Source: Escherichia phage W115. From it: a stretch of 64,000 nucleotides of DNA. The stretch lies in sequence record ON286974; one strand, 5' to 3'. This document shows, in pieces, positions 3,889 through 63,252 of the stretch (position 1 is its first letter; every line of letters begins with the position of its first letter). Below the pieces are notes generated by a model. The model saw nothing but the letters and a program-made list of their open reading frames with translations. It did no database searches and was not told where the DNA came from. The translations under genes and the position numbers were made by a program.

Positions 3889-5103
3889 TTAAGCAGGATG
3901 CGTTTCACGAATGCGTAGAACTCGCTCTAACGTCTCTCTGTCCAGCTTATGTAACTCTTTGGACTGATACATGAAACCATTGCGAGATTCCATGCAAGTG
4001 CAATCACTATATTTTTCTTCCGCTGCCGCGATTGTCTCCAGATCTTTGGCGTACTTGCTGGTTGAATAAACTTCTCGGTTACGCCACTCTAACCCAGCCT
4101 CATTGAATTTAACAATCTCGTCAAATACCCACCATCCAATGTAGATAAATGAAGTTTTGCGCCACGGGATCGGGTGTACGTAACGAAACATTTTAACAAC
4201 TTCCATTGAACATTTTCTACTTGTACTTGTTGCAACTTCTACTGTTTCATCTTCGATCTGTTGATATAGTTTAGCAACACACCAGAATTTGGCTGTGTCA
4301 TCGTAAGTAGCACTCTCTTTGAACAGATGACCGTCTGGAGTGATAGAAAATCCTTCCAGTGCTTCGCCAACCTCACTACCGATCAGAGTCGGTGACATTT
4401 GCCCTTCGCGCTGCAAATACCAGTTATATTTGATCGTCAAATTAGGCATACCGCTAGAATCGCCTACAATGTTCTCTGACACAACATAATTAAGTAAGAT
4501 CTCATTACCTAGTGCCACGGTCTTTGATTCCACTACATCCTGATCTACGTTCATTGTTGCCAGCATGATTTTAGTCGATGCGCTATCGGCTGAATCTTCC
4601 GACTCACCCCACACTTTTACAGTATACACGCCGTTTTTATCTGCTGTAAATTTTTGGATCGTAATATCCTGTGTTGTGTCTATAACGTCTTCGCCCTTAC
4701 TCCAACTATAATGTAGTTCATAGTTGTCTGCTGGAGTCTTCCCACCAGAAAATTTTACTGTTGCATGTAATTCTACGTCTGTTTGTGATGATACGTAGAA
4801 ATGCTGCGGTTCGGTGATATTTACGATTAATTCAGCTTCTTCCATGAGGAAAACTTCAGATTCTACTGATTCCATCGTATCGGTATCCTGTACCGTTACT
4901 TTATAGCTACCCGCATTTTCACTTGTTGCACCTACTACAGATAGCGTAGCTGTGCTATTTTCATGTGGTTGGTCGTCTTTTGTCCATGTATATGTCAAAT
5001 TGCTGGGTAATGGTTCGTCACCCGCTACAGTCGCCGTTAAGGTGAAACCATCTCCAGCAAGAAAACATCTTTTGTCAGATTTAATTGATACTGTGAAAGT
5101 CAT
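3889..5103 (-). CDS. hoc: Hoc, highly immunogenic outer capsid protein (Ig-like repeats)
   Basis: 404 aa with repeated Ig-like modules (TYTWTKDDQ..., YELHYSWSKGED..., GSYKVTVQD / GVYTVKVWG) and a C-terminal capsid-binding region; position between gene 24 and uvsW as in T4. Confidence 0.8.
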   Translation of the reverse strand: MTFTVSIKSDKRCFLAGDGFTLTATVAGDEPLPSNLTYTWTKDDQPHENSTATLSVVGATSENAGSYKVTVQDTDTMESVESEVFLMEEAELIVNITEPQHFYVSSQTDVELHATVKFSGGKTPADNYELHYSWSKGEDVIDTTQDITIQKFTADKNGVYTVKVWGESEDSADSASTKIMLATMNVDQDVVESKTVALGNEILLNYVVSENIVGDSSGMPNLTIKYNWYLQREGQMSPTLIGSEVGEALEGFSITPDGHLFKESATYDDTAKFWCVAKLYQQIEDETVEVATSTSRKCSMEVVKMFRYVHPIPWRKTSFIYIGWWVFDEIVKFNEAGLEWRNREVYSTSKYAKDLETIAAAEEKYSDCTCMESRNGFMYQSKELHKLDRETLERVLRIRETHPA

Positions 5104-11616: not shown

Positions 11617-12134
11617 TGACAGAAACTAAACCTATGTTAAAATTTGTTGTTCCTGTAAAAAAATTAGAGATAAACGGGAAACATATCAAGATCCCAAAAA
11701 TGGGGATTAAGCAACATCGATTATTAAAAGATGTTCGTAGCTGTGATGAAACATTAAAGATTCTTCTTGATTCAATCTGTCCTGGGTTAAACGCTGCCGA
11801 GTCTGAATTGGTTATGCTTAACCTTTGTGCGTTTAATGGTAAGTGTCTGGAAGAAAAAGATGGTCTTAAGCTGTCTGATGTGTATATTTGTACAGAGACT
11901 GAATTTACTTTAAATGGTAAAGTCTTTAAATTTAAAAATCCAATGTATACTTCTGACCCCATTATCGATGACGCTGATTTCTTGAGTCATCATTATCACG
12001 ATCCTAGTGTAGACTTCCATGATTTCCCAGCTTTTATTATGGATTGGGCTACAGGATTAAGAAAAACTATTGCACTGGATACACCGGAAGGTACTATCTA
12101 TGGTGGAATTAACATATTGGATCGCCTATCATGA
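11616..12134 (+). CDS. 28: baseplate hub distal subunit gp28
   Basis: 172 aa; synteny; ATGA-type overlap with gene 27. Confidence 0.75.
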   Translation: MTETKPMLKFVVPVKKLEINGKHIKIPKMGIKQHRLLKDVRSCDETLKILLDSICPGLNAAESELVMLNLCAFNGKCLEEKDGLKLSDVYICTETEFTLNGKVFKFKNPMYTSDPIIDDADFLSHHYHDPSVDFHDFPAFIMDWATGLRKTIALDTPEGTIYGGINILDRLS

Positions 12135-13864
12135 ATGACGCATTAACATCATTTCGCGGGATGCGCAAGGAAGCGGAAGAAAACCCGATTGATAAACTTA
12201 ACAAATTAGATAAACTTGATTCTATTGATAATTTGCAAGCCGCTACCGAATTGGTGGCGGAGACAGTAGAACAAAAATCTAATGAAGTTGTTGGTGCGGT
12301 AGAGGATAACACCGCAGCCAATGAATTGACGGCAGAGAATACCCAATCTACCGCTGGCAATACCCAAAAAACTTATGAAGAATTGCAAAAACTCAATAAT
12401 TTCTCTTCTCAGATGAATGAGAAATTACGTGGTTTTGGTGTTATGATGGAACGTAGATTTGGTGTTGTCAGTAAAATGGCTAGCGGTATTGGTGCGATTG
12501 AAGAAGCACTGAAAAAACCGGAACAACCGCAAACAATGCCATCACCTCAGCCAGTTTTGCCTACTGTGCCGGAACAGCCTAATAATGACAACTATCAAGG
12601 TCTTCCAAAGAAAAAACCAGATGTTGAGGAACGGAAGAAAAAGAACGCCACAGATAAGCGTAATGCAGATTCTATGGAAAATCTTCTTAAAGTTGTTCGT
12701 GGAGGATTTAAAGAAACCATAGGTATCTCTAATAAGGTCTTAGGGATGTTATTTAAGATCACCTTGACCGCTATGGCAGAAGCCGCAAAATGGGGCGCTA
12801 TTTTGATGGGTATTGTTTTTGCCATCGACACCCTTATGATTCATTTCAGATATTGGAGTGATTTATTCGAAACAAAATTCGATGAATTTATGGATAAGGC
12901 CGGAGAATGGGCTGGTCCTATTAGCGATATTTTAACTACTGTTCGTCAGGTTCGAGATTATTGGTCTAAAGGCGAATATGGGGAGTTAATTAAATCTCTT
13001 GTTATGGGTATTGGTGATGCATTCTATAAAACCTTTATCCAACTTGATCGAATTATCACTACTGGTATTGCTAAAATTCTTCGCATGATCCCTGGTATGG
13101 GTGATTATGCCGATAAGTTAGAATATGGTGCTTTAAAATCTGCTGTCGCTCAAGGCTATACGCCAAATGAAAGAGAACTCGAATTAATGGATAAGATCGA
13201 GTCTGAACACGAAGAAGACAAATATGGAGAGCGCACAGGATGGACAGGAAAAGCCCGTGATATTGGCGAAGCTATTGGGGATTCTATTAAGGATAAAGTT
13301 AACGAAGGTCTTGTTAGTCTGGGCTGGAGAGATCAAAAGGATGTTGACGCAGAGAAACGACAAGAAGAATTAAAACGCGGGGAATATAAGTCTGTTTCTG
13401 CTGAACAACGATCTGCTAGTCGTAAACTTAGAATTAAAAGCGAGGGCGCGATCAATAATATTAATGAAGTTATGGAGAATTTGAGCGGTGACTATGACAA
13501 AGAAAGAATGGGAGAGTTGAAAAAGGATATTGATGTTTACCGTGAGCAAGTTCAAGATCCTACATTAGTTGAAAGTGATCGTTCTCAGTTAGAGCGTCTT
13601 ATTGAAAAATTTGATGAGATGTATGCTGATAAAACTAAGGGTGTGGTTCCAACTAATCCTGTTCCTGCAACTGAAACGGAAACAGCAAAACAAGCGGAAC
13701 GCACTGAACAAATGCAGAAACAAGCTGCAATCCAGCAACAAACGACAAATCAGACCTCAAACGTAAATAATACACAAATTGTAACAAACAATAGAACTAT
13801 TAAACAGGGTGCACCAACAACTAGAATTGATGCTCCCGGTACAATTAATATGGGGAACTTTTAA
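12131..13864 (+). CDS. 29: baseplate hub / tail length determinator gp29
   Basis: 577 aa; synteny and size as T4 gp29. Confidence 0.8.
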   Translation: MNDALTSFRGMRKEAEENPIDKLNKLDKLDSIDNLQAATELVAETVEQKSNEVVGAVEDNTAANELTAENTQSTAGNTQKTYEELQKLNNFSSQMNEKLRGFGVMMERRFGVVSKMASGIGAIEEALKKPEQPQTMPSPQPVLPTVPEQPNNDNYQGLPKKKPDVEERKKKNATDKRNADSMENLLKVVRGGFKETIGISNKVLGMLFKITLTAMAEAAKWGAILMGIVFAIDTLMIHFRYWSDLFETKFDEFMDKAGEWAGPISDILTTVRQVRDYWSKGEYGELIKSLVMGIGDAFYKTFIQLDRIITTGIAKILRMIPGMGDYADKLEYGALKSAVAQGYTPNERELELMDKIESEHEEDKYGERTGWTGKARDIGEAIGDSIKDKVNEGLVSLGWRDQKDVDAEKRQEELKRGEYKSVSAEQRSASRKLRIKSEGAINNINEVMENLSGDYDKERMGELKKDIDVYREQVQDPTLVESDRSQLERLIEKFDEMYADKTKGVVPTNPVPATETETAKQAERTEQMQKQAAIQQQTTNQTSNVNNTQIVTNNRTIKQGAPTTRIDAPGTINMGNF

Positions 13865-17270: not shown

Positions 17271-19322
17271 TTACATTTTAAATTTATCTGGCATTGCGTC
17301 TACAGATACCAGATCAGCGATAAGCTGACGTAGAGTTGCCTTATCTGCTTTCTTACGTTCGGTTTTAGCTTCGCTAATGAAGCTGGAGAAAGACAGGTCA
17401 GAAGCAGGTTTAACAACACCTTCACGGATGAATGCATCACCGTCCGCGATCATCTCGCCAGATTCTTGTAATGCTGCCAGTTCATTTTTGTTCATAATAT
17501 GTGCCTCAATGTAATAAGTTTCTTGTGAATCCGTCGATGCCGTAGCACGAGTTACCGTATCAAAGGATAACACAACACCGCGAGGAAGTAAAATCTCGCA
17601 TTCTTTGTAAGCAAATGCTTTGTTACCTACTGGCAACACAGGGATGTTTTCCGCGCCAGCAATGGAGAAAGCAACATTAGCGCCACCTTCACCGCGAGAG
17701 CCAGCCATAGAATCAACACCAGCAACGGCACTAGCCACGTTTGCATTCCAGCCGCCAAAAATGTTAGGTTCAAGGGAAGTGCTCACATAGTTTTTAAAGT
17801 AAAACGCTTTTTGCTTACGTGCAGTTTCCCACATTTGCGACCGGAAGTCCATACCACGATACAGAATAGTACCCGGATCAAGTTTAACGCCATAGTTGGA
17901 GAAGGCATTATCCAGTGCATCGCACATCTTGACCAATTCTTCTGGATCTGCGATGCCTTCAAACTCTTCCAGCTTACGGTCGGTTAGGAAGTTGTTCATA
18001 TTGATGTATGCTGCATCGGCATATTCGCTCAACACAAAACCTTCCGCGCCCGGCAGATCAAGATCAATATCTGCCATCATTTCACCCATGTTGCTAGCAA
18101 TTGCTTCAAACATACCGGAAGCAACATTACGTAGGGCATCGGTTTTAATCTGGGTGATATGACTACGCAGCATTTCAGCTTTTACATCTGCTGGCATAGA
18201 CTGGTCTACTCGATCCATTGCCAGGGCGGTGATCTTGTTTTCGAATACTTCCTCGCTCATGATTTCTTTTAAGCGTTTGATTGATGCTGCGATAACTTCC
18301 GCAGACAACGGATCATATTGATCCTGAACTTTTACCAGTTCGCTTACTGCGTATTTTGCATCGGCTTCGCTTTCAAAAATAGTACGCATGAAACCATAGC
18401 GAGTGATAATATCACTTGTCCAGTCATTCAGAGAACGGGCGGTTGAACGTTCTAAGGCTTGACGGTCAATCAGAGTATTAAACTGTTTCTTAGGTTCTGC
18501 TTCGGTGATATCTTCTTCCGGTTTAAGATTAATTTTTTCTGGATGATTCACATAGTCGCTGTTATAGGTCGCTTGAGTTTTCAGCATTTCTTCTTTAGTC
18601 AAACGAGATTTAGCCGCTACGCGTTGTTCTGCTTCCGAGTTTCGTTCTTCTTCTGACACAAGACTAGCCGCATACGCCTCATCTTTAGTCAGAGATTCAC
18701 CAGTAGCCTTAGATACCCAGCGATCACCTAAATCACTTTCTACTTTAGTGAACAAGGATTCATCAAGTTTAATCCCTTTAATCTTATCAATCGCCATCCC
18801 GCGACGCTTGACAACAACTAAAGCGATCTTTTTGCTGGTCATTACTTCCTGCTGGAATACTTCAAACTTCGGTGTACGACGCACCAAACGCTCTATAACG
18901 CGCTTAACCAGTTCGGTCTTACCTTTCATGCGGGATACGTTAAAACGGAACATAACAGCGTCTAATTGCGCTTTACGGGCTGTTTCCATAACCACATCAA
19001 AAGCACTTGCCATAACTGCAATCGGGTTATCTCCTAGACCATTTTTAAGCTGTACAATACGACCGCTTTTGTTCATTTCGCACAGTACAACATGTGCGGT
19101 CTTGTCACCCATACGAATGATTTTAGGTGTTTTGTTGGTGAAGTTACAAAGACGGACAATCACATCTTTATCGCGTGTCTGTACTGCAAAAAGCTGTTTA
19201 GGATTCTGCTTAGGCTTTAAGCACTGTACCGGAGCAATACTACCAAAGTTTTCTTCCTCTTCCGTCAACAGCCATTTCTCGAAAGATTCAATCATTAGAT
19301 CGTCGATTTCTAAGTTAAACAT
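17271..19322 (-). CDS. alt: Alt ADP-ribosyltransferase (capsid-packaged, modifies host RNA polymerase in T4)
   Basis: 683 aa; ART motifs ILYRGMDFRS, YVSTSLEP, ECEILLPRG; size and position after gene 54 as in T4. Confidence 0.85.
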   Translation of the reverse strand: MFNLEIDDLMIESFEKWLLTEEEENFGSIAPVQCLKPKQNPKQLFAVQTRDKDVIVRLCNFTNKTPKIIRMGDKTAHVVLCEMNKSGRIVQLKNGLGDNPIAVMASAFDVVMETARKAQLDAVMFRFNVSRMKGKTELVKRVIERLVRRTPKFEVFQQEVMTSKKIALVVVKRRGMAIDKIKGIKLDESLFTKVESDLGDRWVSKATGESLTKDEAYAASLVSEEERNSEAEQRVAAKSRLTKEEMLKTQATYNSDYVNHPEKINLKPEEDITEAEPKKQFNTLIDRQALERSTARSLNDWTSDIITRYGFMRTIFESEADAKYAVSELVKVQDQYDPLSAEVIAASIKRLKEIMSEEVFENKITALAMDRVDQSMPADVKAEMLRSHITQIKTDALRNVASGMFEAIASNMGEMMADIDLDLPGAEGFVLSEYADAAYINMNNFLTDRKLEEFEGIADPEELVKMCDALDNAFSNYGVKLDPGTILYRGMDFRSQMWETARKQKAFYFKNYVSTSLEPNIFGGWNANVASAVAGVDSMAGSRGEGGANVAFSIAGAENIPVLPVGNKAFAYKECEILLPRGVVLSFDTVTRATASTDSQETYYIEAHIMNKNELAALQESGEMIADGDAFIREGVVKPASDLSFSSFISEAKTERKKADKATLRQLIADLVSVDAMPDKFKM

Positions 19323-55219: not shown

Positions 55220-58135
55220 ATGGCAGATTTAAGCAGAATCCAATTTAAACGCACTAGCACTAAAGGTCGTAAACCGGATGCTAGTACGATGAATCCGGGG
55301 GAATTGGCAATCAACCTTGCGGATCAATATCTTCTTACTAAAAATGATTCCGGTGATATTATCAATTTAAGTTGTCCTCCGGTGTATGACCGCGATGTTA
55401 CAATGGCGGGTAAGGTTAAAGGTAATAATTATATCTTAGGTAAAACCGCCAACTATCTGGAAGATCAGACAGCGCGAGATCTTAACTATTTTGGTGCTTT
55501 CCGTACCAATGGTCTTGATGGTTTTCTCGAACTCACGCTAAACGTTCCTCATTCTTCTGGTGTTCAGCATGGTCGAGGATTTACTTTCCAGTATGGACAC
55601 ACAGGAAACCGTGTAGAAACTTATGGTTATAATAAAGAAGGACAAAAAGCATTTAGTTATAAAATGTATCACGAAGGTGATAAACCAACTCCAGGAGAAT
55701 TGAACGTCTATAGCAAACAAGAAATTGACAGAATGTTTATTAAAAACGTTAAAATGTCTGTTCCTTCCGGTGACGCAACTCGTGGTTACTTTAAGATCGC
55801 GACCGCAATGATTCCGCAGAATGGTCGAATGGCATTTTTACGGATTTACGGCGGAAACGGATATAATGTTAACTCCTACGATCAGGTGGATTTCCTTGAA
55901 ATTGTGATTCGTGGTGGTAATAATAACCCTAAAGGTGTTAGTATTGCTGCATATCGTCGTAATTCTTTGAACGTCCATGAAGTATTTGCAATTAATACTT
56001 CCGGTGATAACTATGACATTTATGTTAACTATGGTCGTTACACCGATAACGTTATTGTAGAGTTTGGAAAAACTGTTGATGTTGCATTGACTGTTCATGA
56101 TGTTCCTGAATTTTCGGCGACTAAACCAGCAACCGGAACTAAATTTGATGCTCGTGTTATTACAATGTTCAACACCGAAAACAAAGCCGGAACGTTGATG
56201 TTTGATAATAACGGTCAAGGAACGTATGATATTATCAGCTTGAATAACTCGACTGATAGCAATAAAAAATATCTTCGTAAGTTTCGTAGCAAATCCGCAG
56301 AAACAATATGGCATGAAGTTGTCGAGGGTAGCGTATATCGTTTAGCTACGGGCGTTACTGATCAGTCAGACCAACTAAAAATTGATTTTAATGGGGTTAC
56401 TGTAAATCGTCTTTTCGTTAAGGGAAATAATGCTATCAGAATGGAGCGTAGAGACGGACAAAGTAATTACCTAGAATTTTATGATTATCGTTCCGGTGCT
56501 AACCGCCGTCAAGGTTATCTAGGATATGGTGACGGTACTACTAACACCGTACAGTTAGTAAATGAATTAACGGAAGGTACTAACTCATTACGACTGGATG
56601 ATACTGGTCAGGTTACGCTGTCAGTAGGCAAAACAAAAATTGTATATACCAACGGACAATATTATTCCGCTAACTCTGATGCATTCCGTATGATTTACGG
56701 CAATTATGGCGCATTCTGGCGAAATGATGGTCAAAAAGTATATTTGTTGTCTACTGCCGAAAATGATCGTTTTGGTGGATGGAACGGCAACCGACCATTC
56801 ATTTACGACCTGTCAACTGGTAAAGTTACTTTAGGTGGCGACGGTAACGAAGGCGCATTAGTTCTCGAAAGAGATAGCCGTGCGGCTAGATTTGCAGGTG
56901 ACATTTATGTCGGTAACGGGATGTTAACCTTTGATGCTGGGCGATTAAATTCTCGTGATTACTTCCGATTTAATCATTGGGGCGATAGCAATAACGCTCG
57001 TGATAACATCTTACAGCTTGACGATAGCAAGGGTGCTCATTTTACCACTGAACGTACTTTAGCAACTGGTGCAATTAAAACTAAATTCTTCGGTGATTTG
57101 GAATCTGCTGGTCAAATTAAATGGGGTAAAGGGACCGCCACATCTACGTTTAATATACGTGTGTGGGGTGCTGATGCTCGTAAACAGGTGTTTGAGTGTG
57201 CTGATGAAAGCGGTTGGCATTGGTATACCCAACGTCCGGGCGGTCCAGATACTTCTGCAATTGAGTTTGTCATCAATGGTACTGTTAAACCTCAAGCAAT
57301 CCACACTGGCGGTAATATCACGCTTAACGGTGCTGATATTGAATTTAAACGAAGCGGTAACAAGCATTTATGGTTTAGAGATCCGAACGGCTTAGAGTTG
57401 GGTCTGTTGTACTGCGATGATGCTGGTGTTATGCGTATTCGTGGGGAGAAATCGACCGAAGTATGGAAATTCTCAGCAAAACAGATTCATCTGGAAACTG
57501 GTACTGCCGGAAATGGTGTAGGCTTGCTTCGTGGTGCTGTAGGTGGTGGCGCATGGACTCAATGGCGAGATCGTGGCACTGGCTTGCAGGTTGATTGTCA
57601 GCAATCTGAAAACTCAGCGCATAACGTATGGAGAGCTACGCATCAAGGAAAATACCACATCGCGGCAATGGGTGTACACGTTCCTGGTGGTACTATCGGA
57701 AATGCTATGGTGCGTATTCACGTACACGATGCAACTTTTGACTTTAGCGCAACTGGTGATTTCCAAGCAGGTCGTAACGGTAATTTTAACGATGTGTACA
57801 TTCGTTCTGATGCTCGCCTGAAAATCAATAAGGAAGAGTATAAAGAGAATGCTACCGATAAAGTTAATCGCTTGACGGTATACACCTATGACAAGGTTAA
57901 ATCTTTAAGTGACCGTACTGTCATTGCTCATGAAGTTGGTATTATTGCTCAGGATCTTGAGAAAGAATTGCCAGAAGCAGTAAAAACCTCGAAGATCGGC
58001 GACGGTGATACACCAGAAGAGATCTTAACAATTTCTAACTCTGCTGTCAACGCTCTTTTAATTAAGGCGTTTCAGGAAATGAGCGAAGAATTGAAAGCCG
58101 TTAAAGCTGAACTAGCGGAACTTAAAAAGAATTAA
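55220..58135 (+). CDS. 37: long tail fibre distal subunit gp37 with C-terminal S74-type intramolecular chaperone domain
   Basis: 971 aa; N-terminus MADLSRIQFKRTSTKGRKPDAS...GELAINL matches T4 gp37; C-terminal ...YIRSDARLKINKEEY...AHEVGIIAQDLEKELPEAV... resembles the self-cleaving chaperone domain of endosialidase-type fibres. Confidence 0.85.
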   Translation: MADLSRIQFKRTSTKGRKPDASTMNPGELAINLADQYLLTKNDSGDIINLSCPPVYDRDVTMAGKVKGNNYILGKTANYLEDQTARDLNYFGAFRTNGLDGFLELTLNVPHSSGVQHGRGFTFQYGHTGNRVETYGYNKEGQKAFSYKMYHEGDKPTPGELNVYSKQEIDRMFIKNVKMSVPSGDATRGYFKIATAMIPQNGRMAFLRIYGGNGYNVNSYDQVDFLEIVIRGGNNNPKGVSIAAYRRNSLNVHEVFAINTSGDNYDIYVNYGRYTDNVIVEFGKTVDVALTVHDVPEFSATKPATGTKFDARVITMFNTENKAGTLMFDNNGQGTYDIISLNNSTDSNKKYLRKFRSKSAETIWHEVVEGSVYRLATGVTDQSDQLKIDFNGVTVNRLFVKGNNAIRMERRDGQSNYLEFYDYRSGANRRQGYLGYGDGTTNTVQLVNELTEGTNSLRLDDTGQVTLSVGKTKIVYTNGQYYSANSDAFRMIYGNYGAFWRNDGQKVYLLSTAENDRFGGWNGNRPFIYDLSTGKVTLGGDGNEGALVLERDSRAARFAGDIYVGNGMLTFDAGRLNSRDYFRFNHWGDSNNARDNILQLDDSKGAHFTTERTLATGAIKTKFFGDLESAGQIKWGKGTATSTFNIRVWGADARKQVFECADESGWHWYTQRPGGPDTSAIEFVINGTVKPQAIHTGGNITLNGADIEFKRSGNKHLWFRDPNGLELGLLYCDDAGVMRIRGEKSTEVWKFSAKQIHLETGTAGNGVGLLRGAVGGGAWTQWRDRGTGLQVDCQQSENSAHNVWRATHQGKYHIAAMGVHVPGGTIGNAMVRIHVHDATFDFSATGDFQAGRNGNFNDVYIRSDARLKINKEEYKENATDKVNRLTVYTYDKVKSLSDRTVIAHEVGIIAQDLEKELPEAVKTSKIGDGDTPEEILTISNSAVNALLIKAFQEMSEELKAVKAELAELKKN

Positions 58136-58177
58136 GGAAAAATCCCAGGGAAGGGAAACTACTAAGGAGAAACGGCT

Positions 58178-58417
58178 ATGGTCTATAATATCGTCATTGG
58201 TGCTTTGTCTAGTTTCGGAATGAAACTATTATCAAAGTTAATTAGTGAAAAGATGCTCACTAAAATTTTCTTCTACTGCGCTCGTCGTCTTGCGGCCTAT
58301 ACCAATACGCCAATTGATGATCGTTTTGTGGAAGAACTTTATAAGGAGTTTAATAAAGATCAATCAGAAGATAGCAACGAGCAAGATAAACCTAGTGATA
58401 GTCAAGTACCTAAATAA
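58178..58417 (+). CDS. small protein with N-terminal hydrophobic helix (79 aa)
   Basis: AAGGAGA RBS; sits where T4 has gene 38, but is too short and unlike gp38. Confidence 0.5.
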   Translation: MVYNIVIGALSSFGMKLLSKLISEKMLTKIFFYCARRLAAYTNTPIDDRFVEELYKEFNKDQSEDSNEQDKPSDSQVPK

Positions 58418-58450
58418 GAGTACACTGTCATAGTTATCTTAGGGCATTAT

Positions 58451-59143: not shown

Positions 59144-59392
59144 TTATTGGCGCATAGAAGCCCCTGAATCACATTTTGACGCTGTATGATGAAAACATGT
59201 AGCGTACCAGTCATCGGCTTGTTTGTCTTCGTCAGAAAACGCGTAATTTCGTTGTATACCGTTTTCTACTTTGACCAGTGCGATAGCTGTTTCTGGAAGA
59301 TCAATCAATCGGACAAAATCGCCATCTTCCCATTCTACACGAGCAATATCATAGCCCATCTCAAAGTATACAATCGCTTGTTCTAATTTCAT
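59144..59392 (-). CDS. hypothetical protein (82 aa)
   Basis: Track ORF. Confidence 0.45.
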   Translation of the reverse strand: MKLEQAIVYFEMGYDIARVEWEDGDFVRLIDLPETAIALVKVENGIQRNYAFSDEDKQADDWYATCFHHTASKCDSGASMRQ

Positions 59393-61106: not shown

Positions 61107-61400
61107 TTATTTTCGGTTGTGGTCGCGATATGTTTTAAAATATCCCTCGTACCACGGTAAAATATCTGGATTTTTACCACTATACAGACCTTTAACCATC
61201 ATGTCAATAAGGCCATCTGGTGTCTGATAGTTTCCAGCTTTTATAAGCTCTCTGATTAAAATCTCTCTGTATATGTCTTTCGGATCTTCGTAATCAACTT
61301 GTATTGTGGTTGTGGTTGTGGTCTCATTCAATTTGGTTTCTGGAGTATCTCGCATTGCATCCCACCAATCTTTTGTGACCTTCATGTTATTGAATTGCAT
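61107..61400 (-). CDS. hypothetical protein (97 aa)
   Basis: Track ORF; AAGAGGT RBS. Confidence 0.5.
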   Translation of the reverse strand: MQFNNMKVTKDWWDAMRDTPETKLNETTTTTTIQVDYEDPKDIYREILIRELIKAGNYQTPDGLIDMMVKGLYSGKNPDILPWYEGYFKTYRDHNRK

Positions 61401-61411
61401 AATTTAACCTC

Positions 61412-62170
61412 TTACTTGCAAACGTATTGATCTACATCAATTGCGCCACCGAATGTAGGATGACGTTTTTCAAATCGAATAGTTCCGTCGTTTGGTTCGA
61501 AAACGGAGTATTCATATAGATCTTTCTTGCCAACATTCTTATAAAACCCGCCTTTAGTCATAACGGTTTCTTGTACGTTTGCTTTGTGTACGTTGTATTC
61601 ATCAATGTATACAAAATCAACCATCTTCCCATTTTTAATGGTTACTTTAAGATCCCCTGGCTGGTTTCCATATTTTGCATACAGTGGAGCCTCTTTAATT
61701 TTGGTGGAAATTCCATCTTTCATACTCCACTCATAACGAACGGTGCATTGATAGGTAAAAGTTTCAACCTTCGGTTCTTCCACCACTTTTTCTTCCTGTT
61801 TCGGTTGTTCTTCGTCAACCTTCACGGAAGTCTCTGAATCGCTTTCTGACGCGGTCTCTTCTTTAGGTAATACATTCATCAAGTTTTGGATTTGAGCGTT
61901 GTATACAGCCTCCAGTGGCTGAATCTGCCCGATATTGATCATTGTATCACGAACAGTTTTATTCCAGTTGCGTTGCTCTTGTTTCAGAGACGGATCAATC
62001 TTAACAGCTTTAACATATACTTCATGAAGTTTAGAGTCCAGTGCGGAGATAGACTCATTAGAACAAATAAACTTCTCTGATTTGGTAGTAGCTTTAGCGC
62101 AATCAAAGGACGCAGCGTTAGCACCGAAAGCAGTAGCAGAAAGAACGATAGCAGCGATAATGTTTTTCAT
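61412..62170 (-). CDS. secreted protein with LprI-like (DUF1311, lysozyme-inhibitor-like) N-terminal domain
   Basis: 252 aa; signal peptide MKNIIAAIVLSATAFGANA; FDCAKATTKSEKFICSNESISALDSKLHEVY...EQRNW matches the DUF1311 pattern; acidic linker; Cys-containing C-terminal domain. Confidence 0.6.
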   Translation of the reverse strand: MKNIIAAIVLSATAFGANAASFDCAKATTKSEKFICSNESISALDSKLHEVYVKAVKIDPSLKQEQRNWNKTVRDTMINIGQIQPLEAVYNAQIQNLMNVLPKEETASESDSETSVKVDEEQPKQEEKVVEEPKVETFTYQCTVRYEWSMKDGISTKIKEAPLYAKYGNQPGDLKVTIKNGKMVDFVYIDEYNVHKANVQETVMTKGGFYKNVGKKDLYEYSVFEPNDGTIRFEKRHPTFGGAIDVDQYVCK

Positions 62171-62195
62171 AATATATTCCTCAGTGTTTTGTCTT

Positions 62196-62236
62196 GATGG
62201 GAGTATCTTACTACTCCCTTAATCCGGTGTCAACTA
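62196..62236 (-). promoter_or_regulatory. PeSL early promoter cassette 20
   Basis: TTGACA ... stem GGGAGTAGTAAGATACTCCC; leader. Confidence 0.55.
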
Positions 62237-62423: not shown

Positions 62424-62458
62424 TTCATTGTAGGGGATCGCCGATCCCCTGTCAACAA
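62424..62458 (-). promoter_or_regulatory. PeSL early promoter cassette 21
   Basis: TTGACA - palindrome GGGGATCGGCGATCCCC - TACAAT; GGAGAATCAAA before ATG. Confidence 0.6.
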
Positions 62459-62699: not shown

Positions 62700-62740
62700 T
62701 GTGGGAGTATGTTAATACTCCCATTTCTTTACGTCAACCA
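62700..62740 (-). promoter_or_regulatory. PeSL early promoter cassette 22
   Basis: TTGACG ... stem GGGAGTATTAACATACTCCC; GGAGAATCAC before ATG. Confidence 0.55.
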
Positions 62741-63017: not shown

Positions 63018-63053
63018 GAGTATAATACTACCGATGACCTTTGGCGTCAACTG
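63018..63053 (-). promoter_or_regulatory. PeSL-type early promoter 23 overlapping the 3' end of the upstream gene
   Basis: TTGACG-17-TATTAT; CCGAAACGAACTGGAGGAAAT leader. Confidence 0.45.
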
Positions 63054-63252
63054 CTTTTTTATTATTTTCGTGAAAATTTTTCGTCGCCTCATGTGCTTTT
63101 CGCTGGGCTTCTTGTTGTGCTTGCTGGCGTGCTGCCTCTTGTGAAGCCATAACGGAAGCATTTGCAGCAGTTACAGCCGCTACCATCGCTGCGGTATTAG
63201 CATTTACAGTACATGCACTAGCCAGCAAAGCAATTGCAATCATTTTCTTCAT
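63028..63252 (-). CDS. small secreted protein (74 aa) with signal peptide
   Basis: MKKMIAIALLASACTVNA signal-like N-terminus; AAAGGGGAA RBS. Confidence 0.45.
   Translation of the reverse strand: MKKMIAIALLASACTVNANTAAMVAAVTAANASVMASQEAARQQAQQEAQRKAHEATKNFHENNKKAVDAKGHR

Follow-up and report, generated by a model that had tools for sequence, protein, structure and literature searches.

A Krischvirus early gene for an exported LprI-type protein with a polymorphic, recombining β-barrel cassette

To our knowledge, very few periplasmic factors that phages deploy against other phages are understood, T4 Spackle and T5 Llp being examples. Here we examine a candidate for such a role in Escherichia phage W115: a 252-amino-acid (aa) open reading frame (ORF) on the minus strand, at positions 61412..62170 of a 64,000-nucleotide (nt) stretch of record ON286974, hereafter the window. 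The window comes from a T4-type coliphage that resembles RB49 and belongs to the genus Krischvirus; over the 2.5 kb surrounding the ORF, identity is 98% with Escherichia phage FL38 and ~97% with RB49. The ORF is the orthologue of RB49p262 (NP_891833.1), annotated as a hypothetical protein, and is placed in a block of early genes with topoisomerase gene 52 on one side and holin gene t on the other.

The N-terminal part of the product belongs with the LprI N-terminal domain (PF07007, DUF1311), on which the literature is divided. Mycobacterium tuberculosis LprI has an MliC domain besides PF07007, and MliC domains suffice experimentally for lysozyme resistance, whereas lysozyme inhibition by PF07007 is without experimental support (PMC7933661). 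Salmonella ScwA, a periplasmic, disulfide-bonded PF07007 protein, gives no protection from lysozyme and affects the levels of MltD (PMC7933661). Etsi4, a DUF1311 protein, rescues E. coli from its periplasm-directed effector Etse4 (PMC12981562), and DUF1311 proteins are the predicted immunity partners of other wall-degrading effectors of type VI secretion systems (T6SSs; PMC8867033, PMC12135965). Given this division, PF07007 is best read as a module that binds proteins in the periplasm, often wall-active enzymes, rather than as a proven lysozyme inhibitor. Two further systems bear comparison. Spackle (sp, gene 61.3) consists of a single, highly conserved 75-aa domain; it is periplasmic and folds as a small bundle of helices with one disulfide (PMC7677548). 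The promoter-early stem-loop (PeSL) elements of RB49 and phi1 combine an AT-rich tract, a σ70 consensus and a GGG..CCC stem-loop, and accompany the ORFan cassettes of hyperplastic regions (Arbiol et al. 2010, PMC2839356).

The domain call for the RB49p262 family is already public. UniProt names the RB49 protein (Q7Y3G7) ‘Lysozyme inhibitor LprI-like N-terminal domain-containing protein’, NCBI names prophage copies ‘lysozyme inhibitor LprI family protein’, and a weak DUF1311 match for RB49ORF260c, probably the same gene, was tabulated in 2006 (PMC1524935). Our literature searches found no functional study of the gene or of phage LprI-domain proteins, and the gene goes unmentioned in PMC2839356. 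What appears to be undescribed is the orphan β-barrel, its organisation as an allelic cassette whose breakpoints are defined, the occurrence of common head and barrel types in virulent Krischviruses and in hicB prophages, and the lack of co-variation between barrel and candidate partners.

Domain plan of the RB49p262 family

The main feature of the RB49p262 family is its C-terminal domain, which is a polymorphic, recombining cassette. The whole family amounts to only 20 clusters from a collection of 5.8 billion proteins. Across the 20-member alignment residues 1 to ~125 are almost invariant, and the ~115 residues at the C terminus form six or more highly divergent types, which we name A, B1, B2, C, D and E. 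We consider the RB49p262 orthologue a real gene because its entire length aligns with phrog_14799 (E = 3e-155; function unassigned), because it occurs in 58 of 58 Krischvirus genome records and because its head is under strong purifying selection.

Signals in the sequence strongly support an exported, soluble periplasmic protein that is made early. Early expression is predicted from the promoter signals upstream of the gene (Table 1), and the late promoter motif is absent from the 120 nt 5′ of it. The signal peptide (MKNIIAAIVLSATAFGANA|AS) opens with a basic segment, continues into a hydrophobic core (Kyte–Doolittle hydropathy up to 2.47), has an A-x-A motif, lacks a lipobox cysteine, and is invariant or nearly so across all family members. 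A preliminary description of the window had proposed a periplasmic protein with a cleavable signal peptide, a DUF1311 pattern, an acidic linker and a Cys-containing C-terminal domain, and our analysis bears out each of these elements.

The head carries the DUF1311 pattern FDCAKATTKSEKFICSN...LDSKL...Y...QRNW and scores 23.6 bits against PF07007 (E = 6.8e-5), a small margin over the gathering cut-off of 22; the match extends over profile positions 1–71 of 106 and leaves the C-terminal third of the model uncovered. Three distant phage relatives match the same profile, with a best E of 4.4e-7 among four diverse heads. The PF07007 motif, FDC..A....E..IC....L..LD..L...Y followed by Q+.W...R, is found in ASFDCAKATTKSEKFICSNESISALDSKLHEVY...QEQRNWNKTVRD, and C24, C36, D45, L48, Y52, Q66, R67, W69 and R74 are invariant even when the distant relatives are included; the head has these two cysteines and no further pair. 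AlphaFold2, run with the 20-member family alignment, places helices at residues 30–37, 39–58, 62–80 and 83–98 (predicted local distance difference test score (pLDDT) 65–82), and the fourth of these falls outside the PF07007 match. A wider search with the head profile returned mostly short proteins consisting of PF07007 only, with no informative fusion partner. Profile searches of the Protein Data Bank (PDB) returned nothing but matches that we judged spurious, a PhoU-like entry for the whole family (E = 0.018) and 6ar7 for the head (E = 0.45).

The linker that follows has 36 residues, 13 of them acidic and 5 basic (net charge −8), and is modelled as disordered from residue 104 to 131 (pLDDT <50). 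Beyond it, residues 135–251 are modelled as all-β with a pLDDT of ~90, and Cys142 and Cys251 are invariant in 20 of 20 family members. Type E, the most divergent barrel, likewise gave an eight-strand all-β domain when modelled from its own six sequences only (pLDDT 60–80), so that the barrel alleles are probably versions of one fold. That fold matched generic small barrels only in a fold search. Searching 1.84 billion representative proteins with the barrel profile recovered family members only, plus repeat proteins that proved on inspection to be compositional artefacts. Pfam gave no match above threshold for the 13 barrel alleles or for the tails of the Klebsiella, Aeromonas and SSU5 relatives.

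In plan the protein is like M. tuberculosis LprI (Rv1541c), being exported and pairing a PF07007-type part with a small β-barrel, putatively of the MliC/PliC fold class. MliC/PliC barrels are eight-stranded, and that of Neisseria ACP is closed by a disulfide joining the first strand to the last (PMC5507604); like Brucella PhiA, they are β-barrel inhibitors of lysozyme or peptidoglycan hydrolases. Unlike LprI, which is a lipoprotein, the phage protein has no lipobox and no MliC signature, its barrel is polymorphic, and its head covers only positions 1–71 of the 106-position hidden Markov model (HMM) and has one Cys pair. None of the 13 barrel alleles matched MliC (PF09864) at E ≤ 10; hhalign of the barrels against an MliC/PliC alignment, in which the MliC sequence had been validated against PDB entry 2f09, gave a null result (probability 0.4%); and the MliC/PliC motifs SxSGAxY and YxxxTKG, as defined in PMC5507604, are absent from the barrels and not conserved. 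Because family membership was tested in these ways and not found, the resemblance to MliC/PliC is limited to plan and putative fold class.

Barrel alleles, breakpoints and prophage copies

Among the 58 Krischvirus records, type A occurs in 44 at ≥95.7% identity (42 of them at ≥99%), type D in 12 (Phi1, GEC-3S, MIZ2/3/6 and others) and type E in two, both JSE. Types B1, B2 and C come from metagenomic Krischvirus contigs, where they occupy the identical slot. The barrel types share little except C142, D152-G153, F186, D217 and C251, and within type A, as within type D, the barrels are essentially identical.

Alignment with blastn delimits what is exchanged. Homology between alleles starts at the promoter in phages and 6 nt 5′ of the ATG in prophages, stops within the linker (gene nt 371–408), is absent across the barrel DNA, and restarts at the stop codon to run through the first ~60 nt of the downstream gene p261. 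This 3′ anchor keeps ~80% conservation whichever allele it accompanies, and the remnant in prophages is no exception. The segments directly support exchange of the barrel by recombination from linker to stop codon. By the Nei–Gojobori method, non-synonymous divergence (dN) in the head is 0–0.013 against a synonymous divergence (dS) of 0.06–0.32, the mark of strong purifying selection; between barrels of one loose type dS is ~1.7–1.8 and dN/dS 0.13–0.24, and for different types dS is not computable. Saturated synonymous sites and these dN/dS values argue against recent positive selection on the barrels, and on the same grounds we rejected positive selection as the origin of their diversity. The picture that the alignments suggest is one of old, selectively maintained barrel alleles recombined onto a recently shared head.

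The locus is like the PeSL ORFan cassettes in lying in a hyperplastic early region behind a PeSL-like promoter and hairpin. It differs from the shuffling of whole ORFans because the breakpoints are intragenic: half a gene is replaced, between the linker and the stop codon.

The same head also occurs in temperate phages. Among 5,426 complete E. coli genomes, 26 carry a copy that is 94–96% identical in DNA to the window over gene nt 1–371, 1–381 or 1–408 and unrelated beyond. In each of the five loci examined, a lambda-like prophage (portal, gpA terminase, Rha) has integrated into hicB and the copy is its final gene; the barrels of prophage copies are of B-like, C and E types. Served by a promoter-like site and a strong terminator of its own, at the prophage end and apart from the core modules, the copy has the properties of an accessory gene (‘moron’). 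Two of the loci, L004 and L008, carry behind the gene a 25-codon stump of p261, the first ~17 codons of which match the start of Krischvirus p261; this argues that these lineages took the gene from a Krischvirus-like genome. The insertion site, hicB, is the antitoxin gene of the hicAB toxin–antitoxin pair (L004 12001–13324; L002 10001–11317; L008/L009), and in strain H2 the prophage has left it truncated.

More distant relatives with the same plan are found in Klebsiella phage PWKp16 (250 aa), Aeromonas phage CC2 (239 aa) and the Salmonella phage-plasmid SSU5 (232 aa). Each has the signal-peptide|ASFDC junction, a head with a Cys pair and a K/P/E-rich linker; their C-terminal modules are unrelated, yet each has two cysteines. 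In PWKp16 (locus L017) an annotated Spackle homologue (1607–1921) and the LprI-domain gene (4001–4753) lie 2 kb apart in one early region, flanked by helicase/primase and dCTPase genes. Because this phage has both, Spackle and the LprI-domain protein are not simple alternatives.

Candidate functions and partners

We tentatively favour a role for the RB49p262 product as a periplasmic exclusion or immunity factor that binds and neutralises, most probably, a component of superinfecting phages, with the barrel giving specificity and the head a constant function. An exclusion-type role is the most plausible class because of the early promoter, the predicted export, the autonomous unit at the prophage end and the precedent of immunity by Etsi4 (PMC12981562). 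In the mechanism that we propose, a σ70-type early promoter would allow transcription from the start of infection, and Sec export and signal-peptide cleavage would yield a soluble periplasmic protein. In the periplasm this protein would bind and neutralise a factor that enters from outside the cell. Most probably that factor would be part of a superinfecting phage, for example a cell-wall enzyme of the tail or another ejected protein; the infected cell or lysogen would be protected. The barrel would act as an interchangeable specificity module; the conserved head may bind to the wall or to a partner that is itself conserved, or offer a second inhibitory surface. Phage–phage competition, the role of T4 Spackle, would also be the functional class of this family. 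For the superinfection exclusion by analogy with Spackle that the preliminary description put forward, early promoter, export and accessory position in prophages speak in favour; the analogy loses ground in that no homology to Spackle was found and inhibition by PF07007 is unproven.

Several observations weigh against the favoured role. The functional claims for the RB49p262 protein are all inferred. The barrel allele changes without co-variation of the tail lysozyme gp5, which is 98.8–100% identical in all isolates. Neither Pfam nor hhalign relates the barrel to MliC/PliC by sequence, and in the fold search Cap15, outer-membrane-protein (OMP)-like and designed barrels score equally or higher. 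PF07007 domains are not always enzyme antagonists, as ScwA illustrates (PMC7933661). PADLOC gave no meaningful match to a defence system; its best, PDC-S13 over head and linker (E = 0.004–0.014), we judged not meaningful.

We compared the barrel allele with candidate partners in eight loci, which represent all allele types, and in the isolate census. Holin T is 97–100% identical whichever barrel is present. Between the barrel and the gp37 receptor-binding tip there is no correspondence: the tips of RB49 (type A) and L010 (type D) are 97% identical, and L011 (type E) and L014 (type B2) have tips that are 95% identical and gp38 in common despite their different barrels. The downstream gene p261 is not locked to the barrel either, L005 pairing barrel C with a window-type p261; for this reason, and since the p261 product has no signal peptide and no family match, we rejected it as a cognate partner in the manner of a toxin–immunity pair. 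With gp5 near-identical in all isolates, the barrel is unlikely to recognise gp5 in a kin-specific way. These results remove the simplest partner hypotheses, and argue against an antiholin role, masking of the receptor of the phage’s own adhesin, pairing with p261 and barrel specificity for the phage’s own gp5. The distal tail-fibre module is itself highly variable among Krischvirus contigs: gp37 ranges from 922 to 1,014 aa with tips 26–61% identical between groups, and some contigs encode a gp38-type adhesin, the place of which is taken in one other contig by three ~100-aa genes.

Set against this background, a strict analogue of Spackle, whose head or barrel would bind the gp5 lysozyme domain of incoming T4-type phages and block their crossing of the wall, seems improbable. 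The product is early and periplasmic, as Spackle is, and its modelled head shares with Spackle (PMC7677548) a small helical build and one Cys pair. The role could be vacant, as no Spackle homologue was detected in the syntenic 41–61 interval of RB49 or in the ~110 of 164 kb of Krischvirus sequence searched, and, speculatively, the acidic linker could suit the basic gp5 surface to which Spackle binds. Yet hhalign aligned only the signal peptides of Spackle and the head (probability 20%), which indicates no homology, and tblastn with the Klebsiella-phage Spackle homologue gave no match at the RB49p262 locus. The coexistence of both genes in PWKp16 and the polymorphism of the barrel beside an essentially invariant gp5 tell against it too, and, unlike Spackle, the RB49p262 family adds a linker and a polymorphic barrel and occurs in temperate phages. 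We also count it against the analogy that gp5 is a T4-type lysozyme, whereas the enzyme that LprI inhibits is c-type. Lysozyme inhibition by PF07007, moreover, is unproven (PMC7933661). The same tblastn query, run permissively, aligned over its full length at the small gene that separates gp37 and t (window 58146..58427, plus strand; RB49p252/dc5 region; 27% identity over 95 aa, E = 0.9), which we treated as noise because the alignment is insignificant and has stop codons in frame. Equally improbable is a modulator that, like ScwA, would bind or stabilise host lytic transglycosylases or other peptidoglycan hydrolases and so preserve envelope integrity during infection or tune wall turnover in lysogens. 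ScwA is a PF07007 precedent, controlling MltD levels with no lysozyme inhibition (PMC7933661), and the near-invariance of the head in E. coli phages unrelated to one another points to a host target that is conserved. Such a target leaves six ancient barrel alleles in one host species unexplained, however, and the architecture of ScwA differs, with PF07007 at the C terminus and four cysteines spread over the protein.

It is very doubtful that the protein confers orphan immunity to bacterial toxins acting in the periplasm, such as type VI effectors or colicin-like proteins, to the benefit of the lysogen or infected cell. DUF1311 proteins do serve, or are predicted to serve, as immunity proteins against wall-degrading T6SS effectors (PMC12981562, PMC8867033, PMC12135965), with a signal peptide and PF07007 as here and acting in the periplasm on a wall-directed enzyme; the genes sit in an accessory position in prophages, and allelic diversity is typical of immunity genes. 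Those proteins, however, are single-domain, of ~146 aa and encoded beside their effector, whereas the phage protein has an extra variable domain and no adjacent effector gene in any locus examined; all the strictly virulent Krischviruses keep it, and in their short infection cycle protection from neighbours would be weakly selected. Receptor masking in the manner of T5 Llp or Cor, by which the barrel would bind an outer-membrane receptor from the periplasm, block re-infection and shield progeny from debris, is highly improbable. Tail-fibre and adhesin genes do lie within ~3 kb, and Llp works at the periplasmic face of the outer membrane (PMC9586334). The absence of a lipobox means no anchoring in the outer membrane, and, for a protein of Llp or Cor type, the discordance between barrel allele and gp37/gp38 type is equally unfavourable. 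No better placed is lysis timing, which the preliminary description had offered as a second possibility and for which an RI-like antiholin partner of holin T would be the model. The product is periplasmic and gene t lies 2.3 kb away, but against this stand the near-identity of holin T across barrel alleles, the early promoter with no late motif upstream, and the occurrence of the head in stand-alone units of lambdoid prophages that lack a T-type holin and the T4 lysis system.

The exclusion or immunity role that we favour could be one instance of something larger, a modular class common to virulent T4-type and temperate enterobacterial phages in which an LprI-N head and linker carry interchangeable orphan domains, each neutralising a different periplasm-exposed protein of rival phages or a toxin. 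These domains would be β-barrels in E. coli phages; in phages of Klebsiella, Aeromonas and Salmonella they would be the other modules with two cysteines. Alleles would be under frequency-dependent selection and traded by recombination; we regard so general a class as rather unlikely. The probability left over from the favoured role and its five rivals falls to functions outside those considered.

The early region and the wider meaning of the family

The early block is dense in near-consensus TTGACA-17-TAnnnT promoters, two of which overlap GGGAGTA..TACTCCC-type hairpins and so are PeSL-like (PMC2839356). Features of the locus and of the sequences compared with it are collected in Table 1.

Table 1 Features of the RB49p262 locus, its surroundings and compared loci (window coordinates unless a locus is named)
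Feature	Position	Strand	Basis or remark
Predicted early σ70 promoter, TTGACA-17 nt-TAAGAT	62233..62205	−	Promoter scan, 10 of 12 consensus matches; function inferred
GGGAGTA/TACTCCC hairpin overlapping the −10	62218..62199	−	Sequence reading
Putative PeSL-like regulatory element (promoter and hairpin)	62199..62233	−	AT-rich tract 5′ of promoter; fits the description in PMC2839356
Shine–Dalgarno GAGGA, 7 nt 5′ of ATG	62178..62182	−	Sequence reading
Sec signal peptide (signal peptidase I), MKNIIAAIVLSATAFGANA, aa 1–19	62114..62170	−	Predicted cleavage ANA|AS; hydropathy and A-x-A motif
LprI-N/DUF1311-type helical head, aa 20–100, Cys24–Cys36 pair	61871..62113	−	Near-invariant in all alleles and prophage copies
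Acidic E/K/P/Q-rich disordered linker, aa 101–136	61763..61870	−	Holds 5′ recombination breakpoints; insertions and deletions between alleles
Allele-A β-barrel cassette, aa 137–252	61415..61762	−	Cys142 in first strand, Cys251 in last; orphan polymorphic domain
3′ recombination anchor: stop codon, 11-nt spacer with ribosome-binding site of next gene, first ~60 nt of p261	61338..61416	−	blastn segments
RB49p261 orthologue, downstream co-transcribed gene, 97 aa	61107..61400	−	At least two types, not strictly tracking barrel allele
PeSL-like promoters with hairpin	62199..62233, 62701..62737	−	Promoter scan
Further near-consensus promoters	62427..62455, 61179..61207, 63022..63050	−	Promoter scan
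Prophage locus L004: promoter-like site; gene; terminator, then truncated hicB	11934–11961; 12001–12771; 12951–12975		Consensus matches only
Variable tail-fibre regions	L011 4142–4924, L014 14033–14815, L015 4195–5095 against window 55220..58135		

Three other genes of the window drew our attention. A 74-aa ORF at 63028..63252 on the minus strand (MKKMIAIALLASACTVNA...) has a signal-peptide-like start, possibly with a lipoprotein-type cysteine, and is a second candidate exported protein of the early block. An 82-aa gene adjoining holin t (59144..59392, minus strand) matches the Pfam Tad2-like family (Thoeris anti-defence 2; E = 3.4e-6, 27.9 bits against a cut-off of 25) and is 95–100% conserved in every Krischvirus locus compared; it is a possible anti-Thoeris candidate in the genus. 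A 683-aa protein with an ADP-ribosyltransferase exoenzyme domain (PF03496, E = 2e-9) is encoded at 17271..19322 on the minus strand and is presumably an Alt-type enzyme, usual in T4-like phages.

The analysis bears on annotation, because the name ‘Lysozyme inhibitor LprI family protein’ is spreading to proteins without demonstrated inhibition, and even in LprI the lysozyme-inhibiting activity probably lies with MliC. Phage cocktails include Krischviruses, so that mutual exclusion between members with different alleles could matter practically. Present in every Krischvirus, ~95% identical in DNA to its prophage counterparts and equipped with old, specificity-like cassettes, the RB49p262 family would be a tractable new model. 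It could shed light on the policing of the periplasm by phages and on the way in which virulent and temperate ones draw from a single gene pool.

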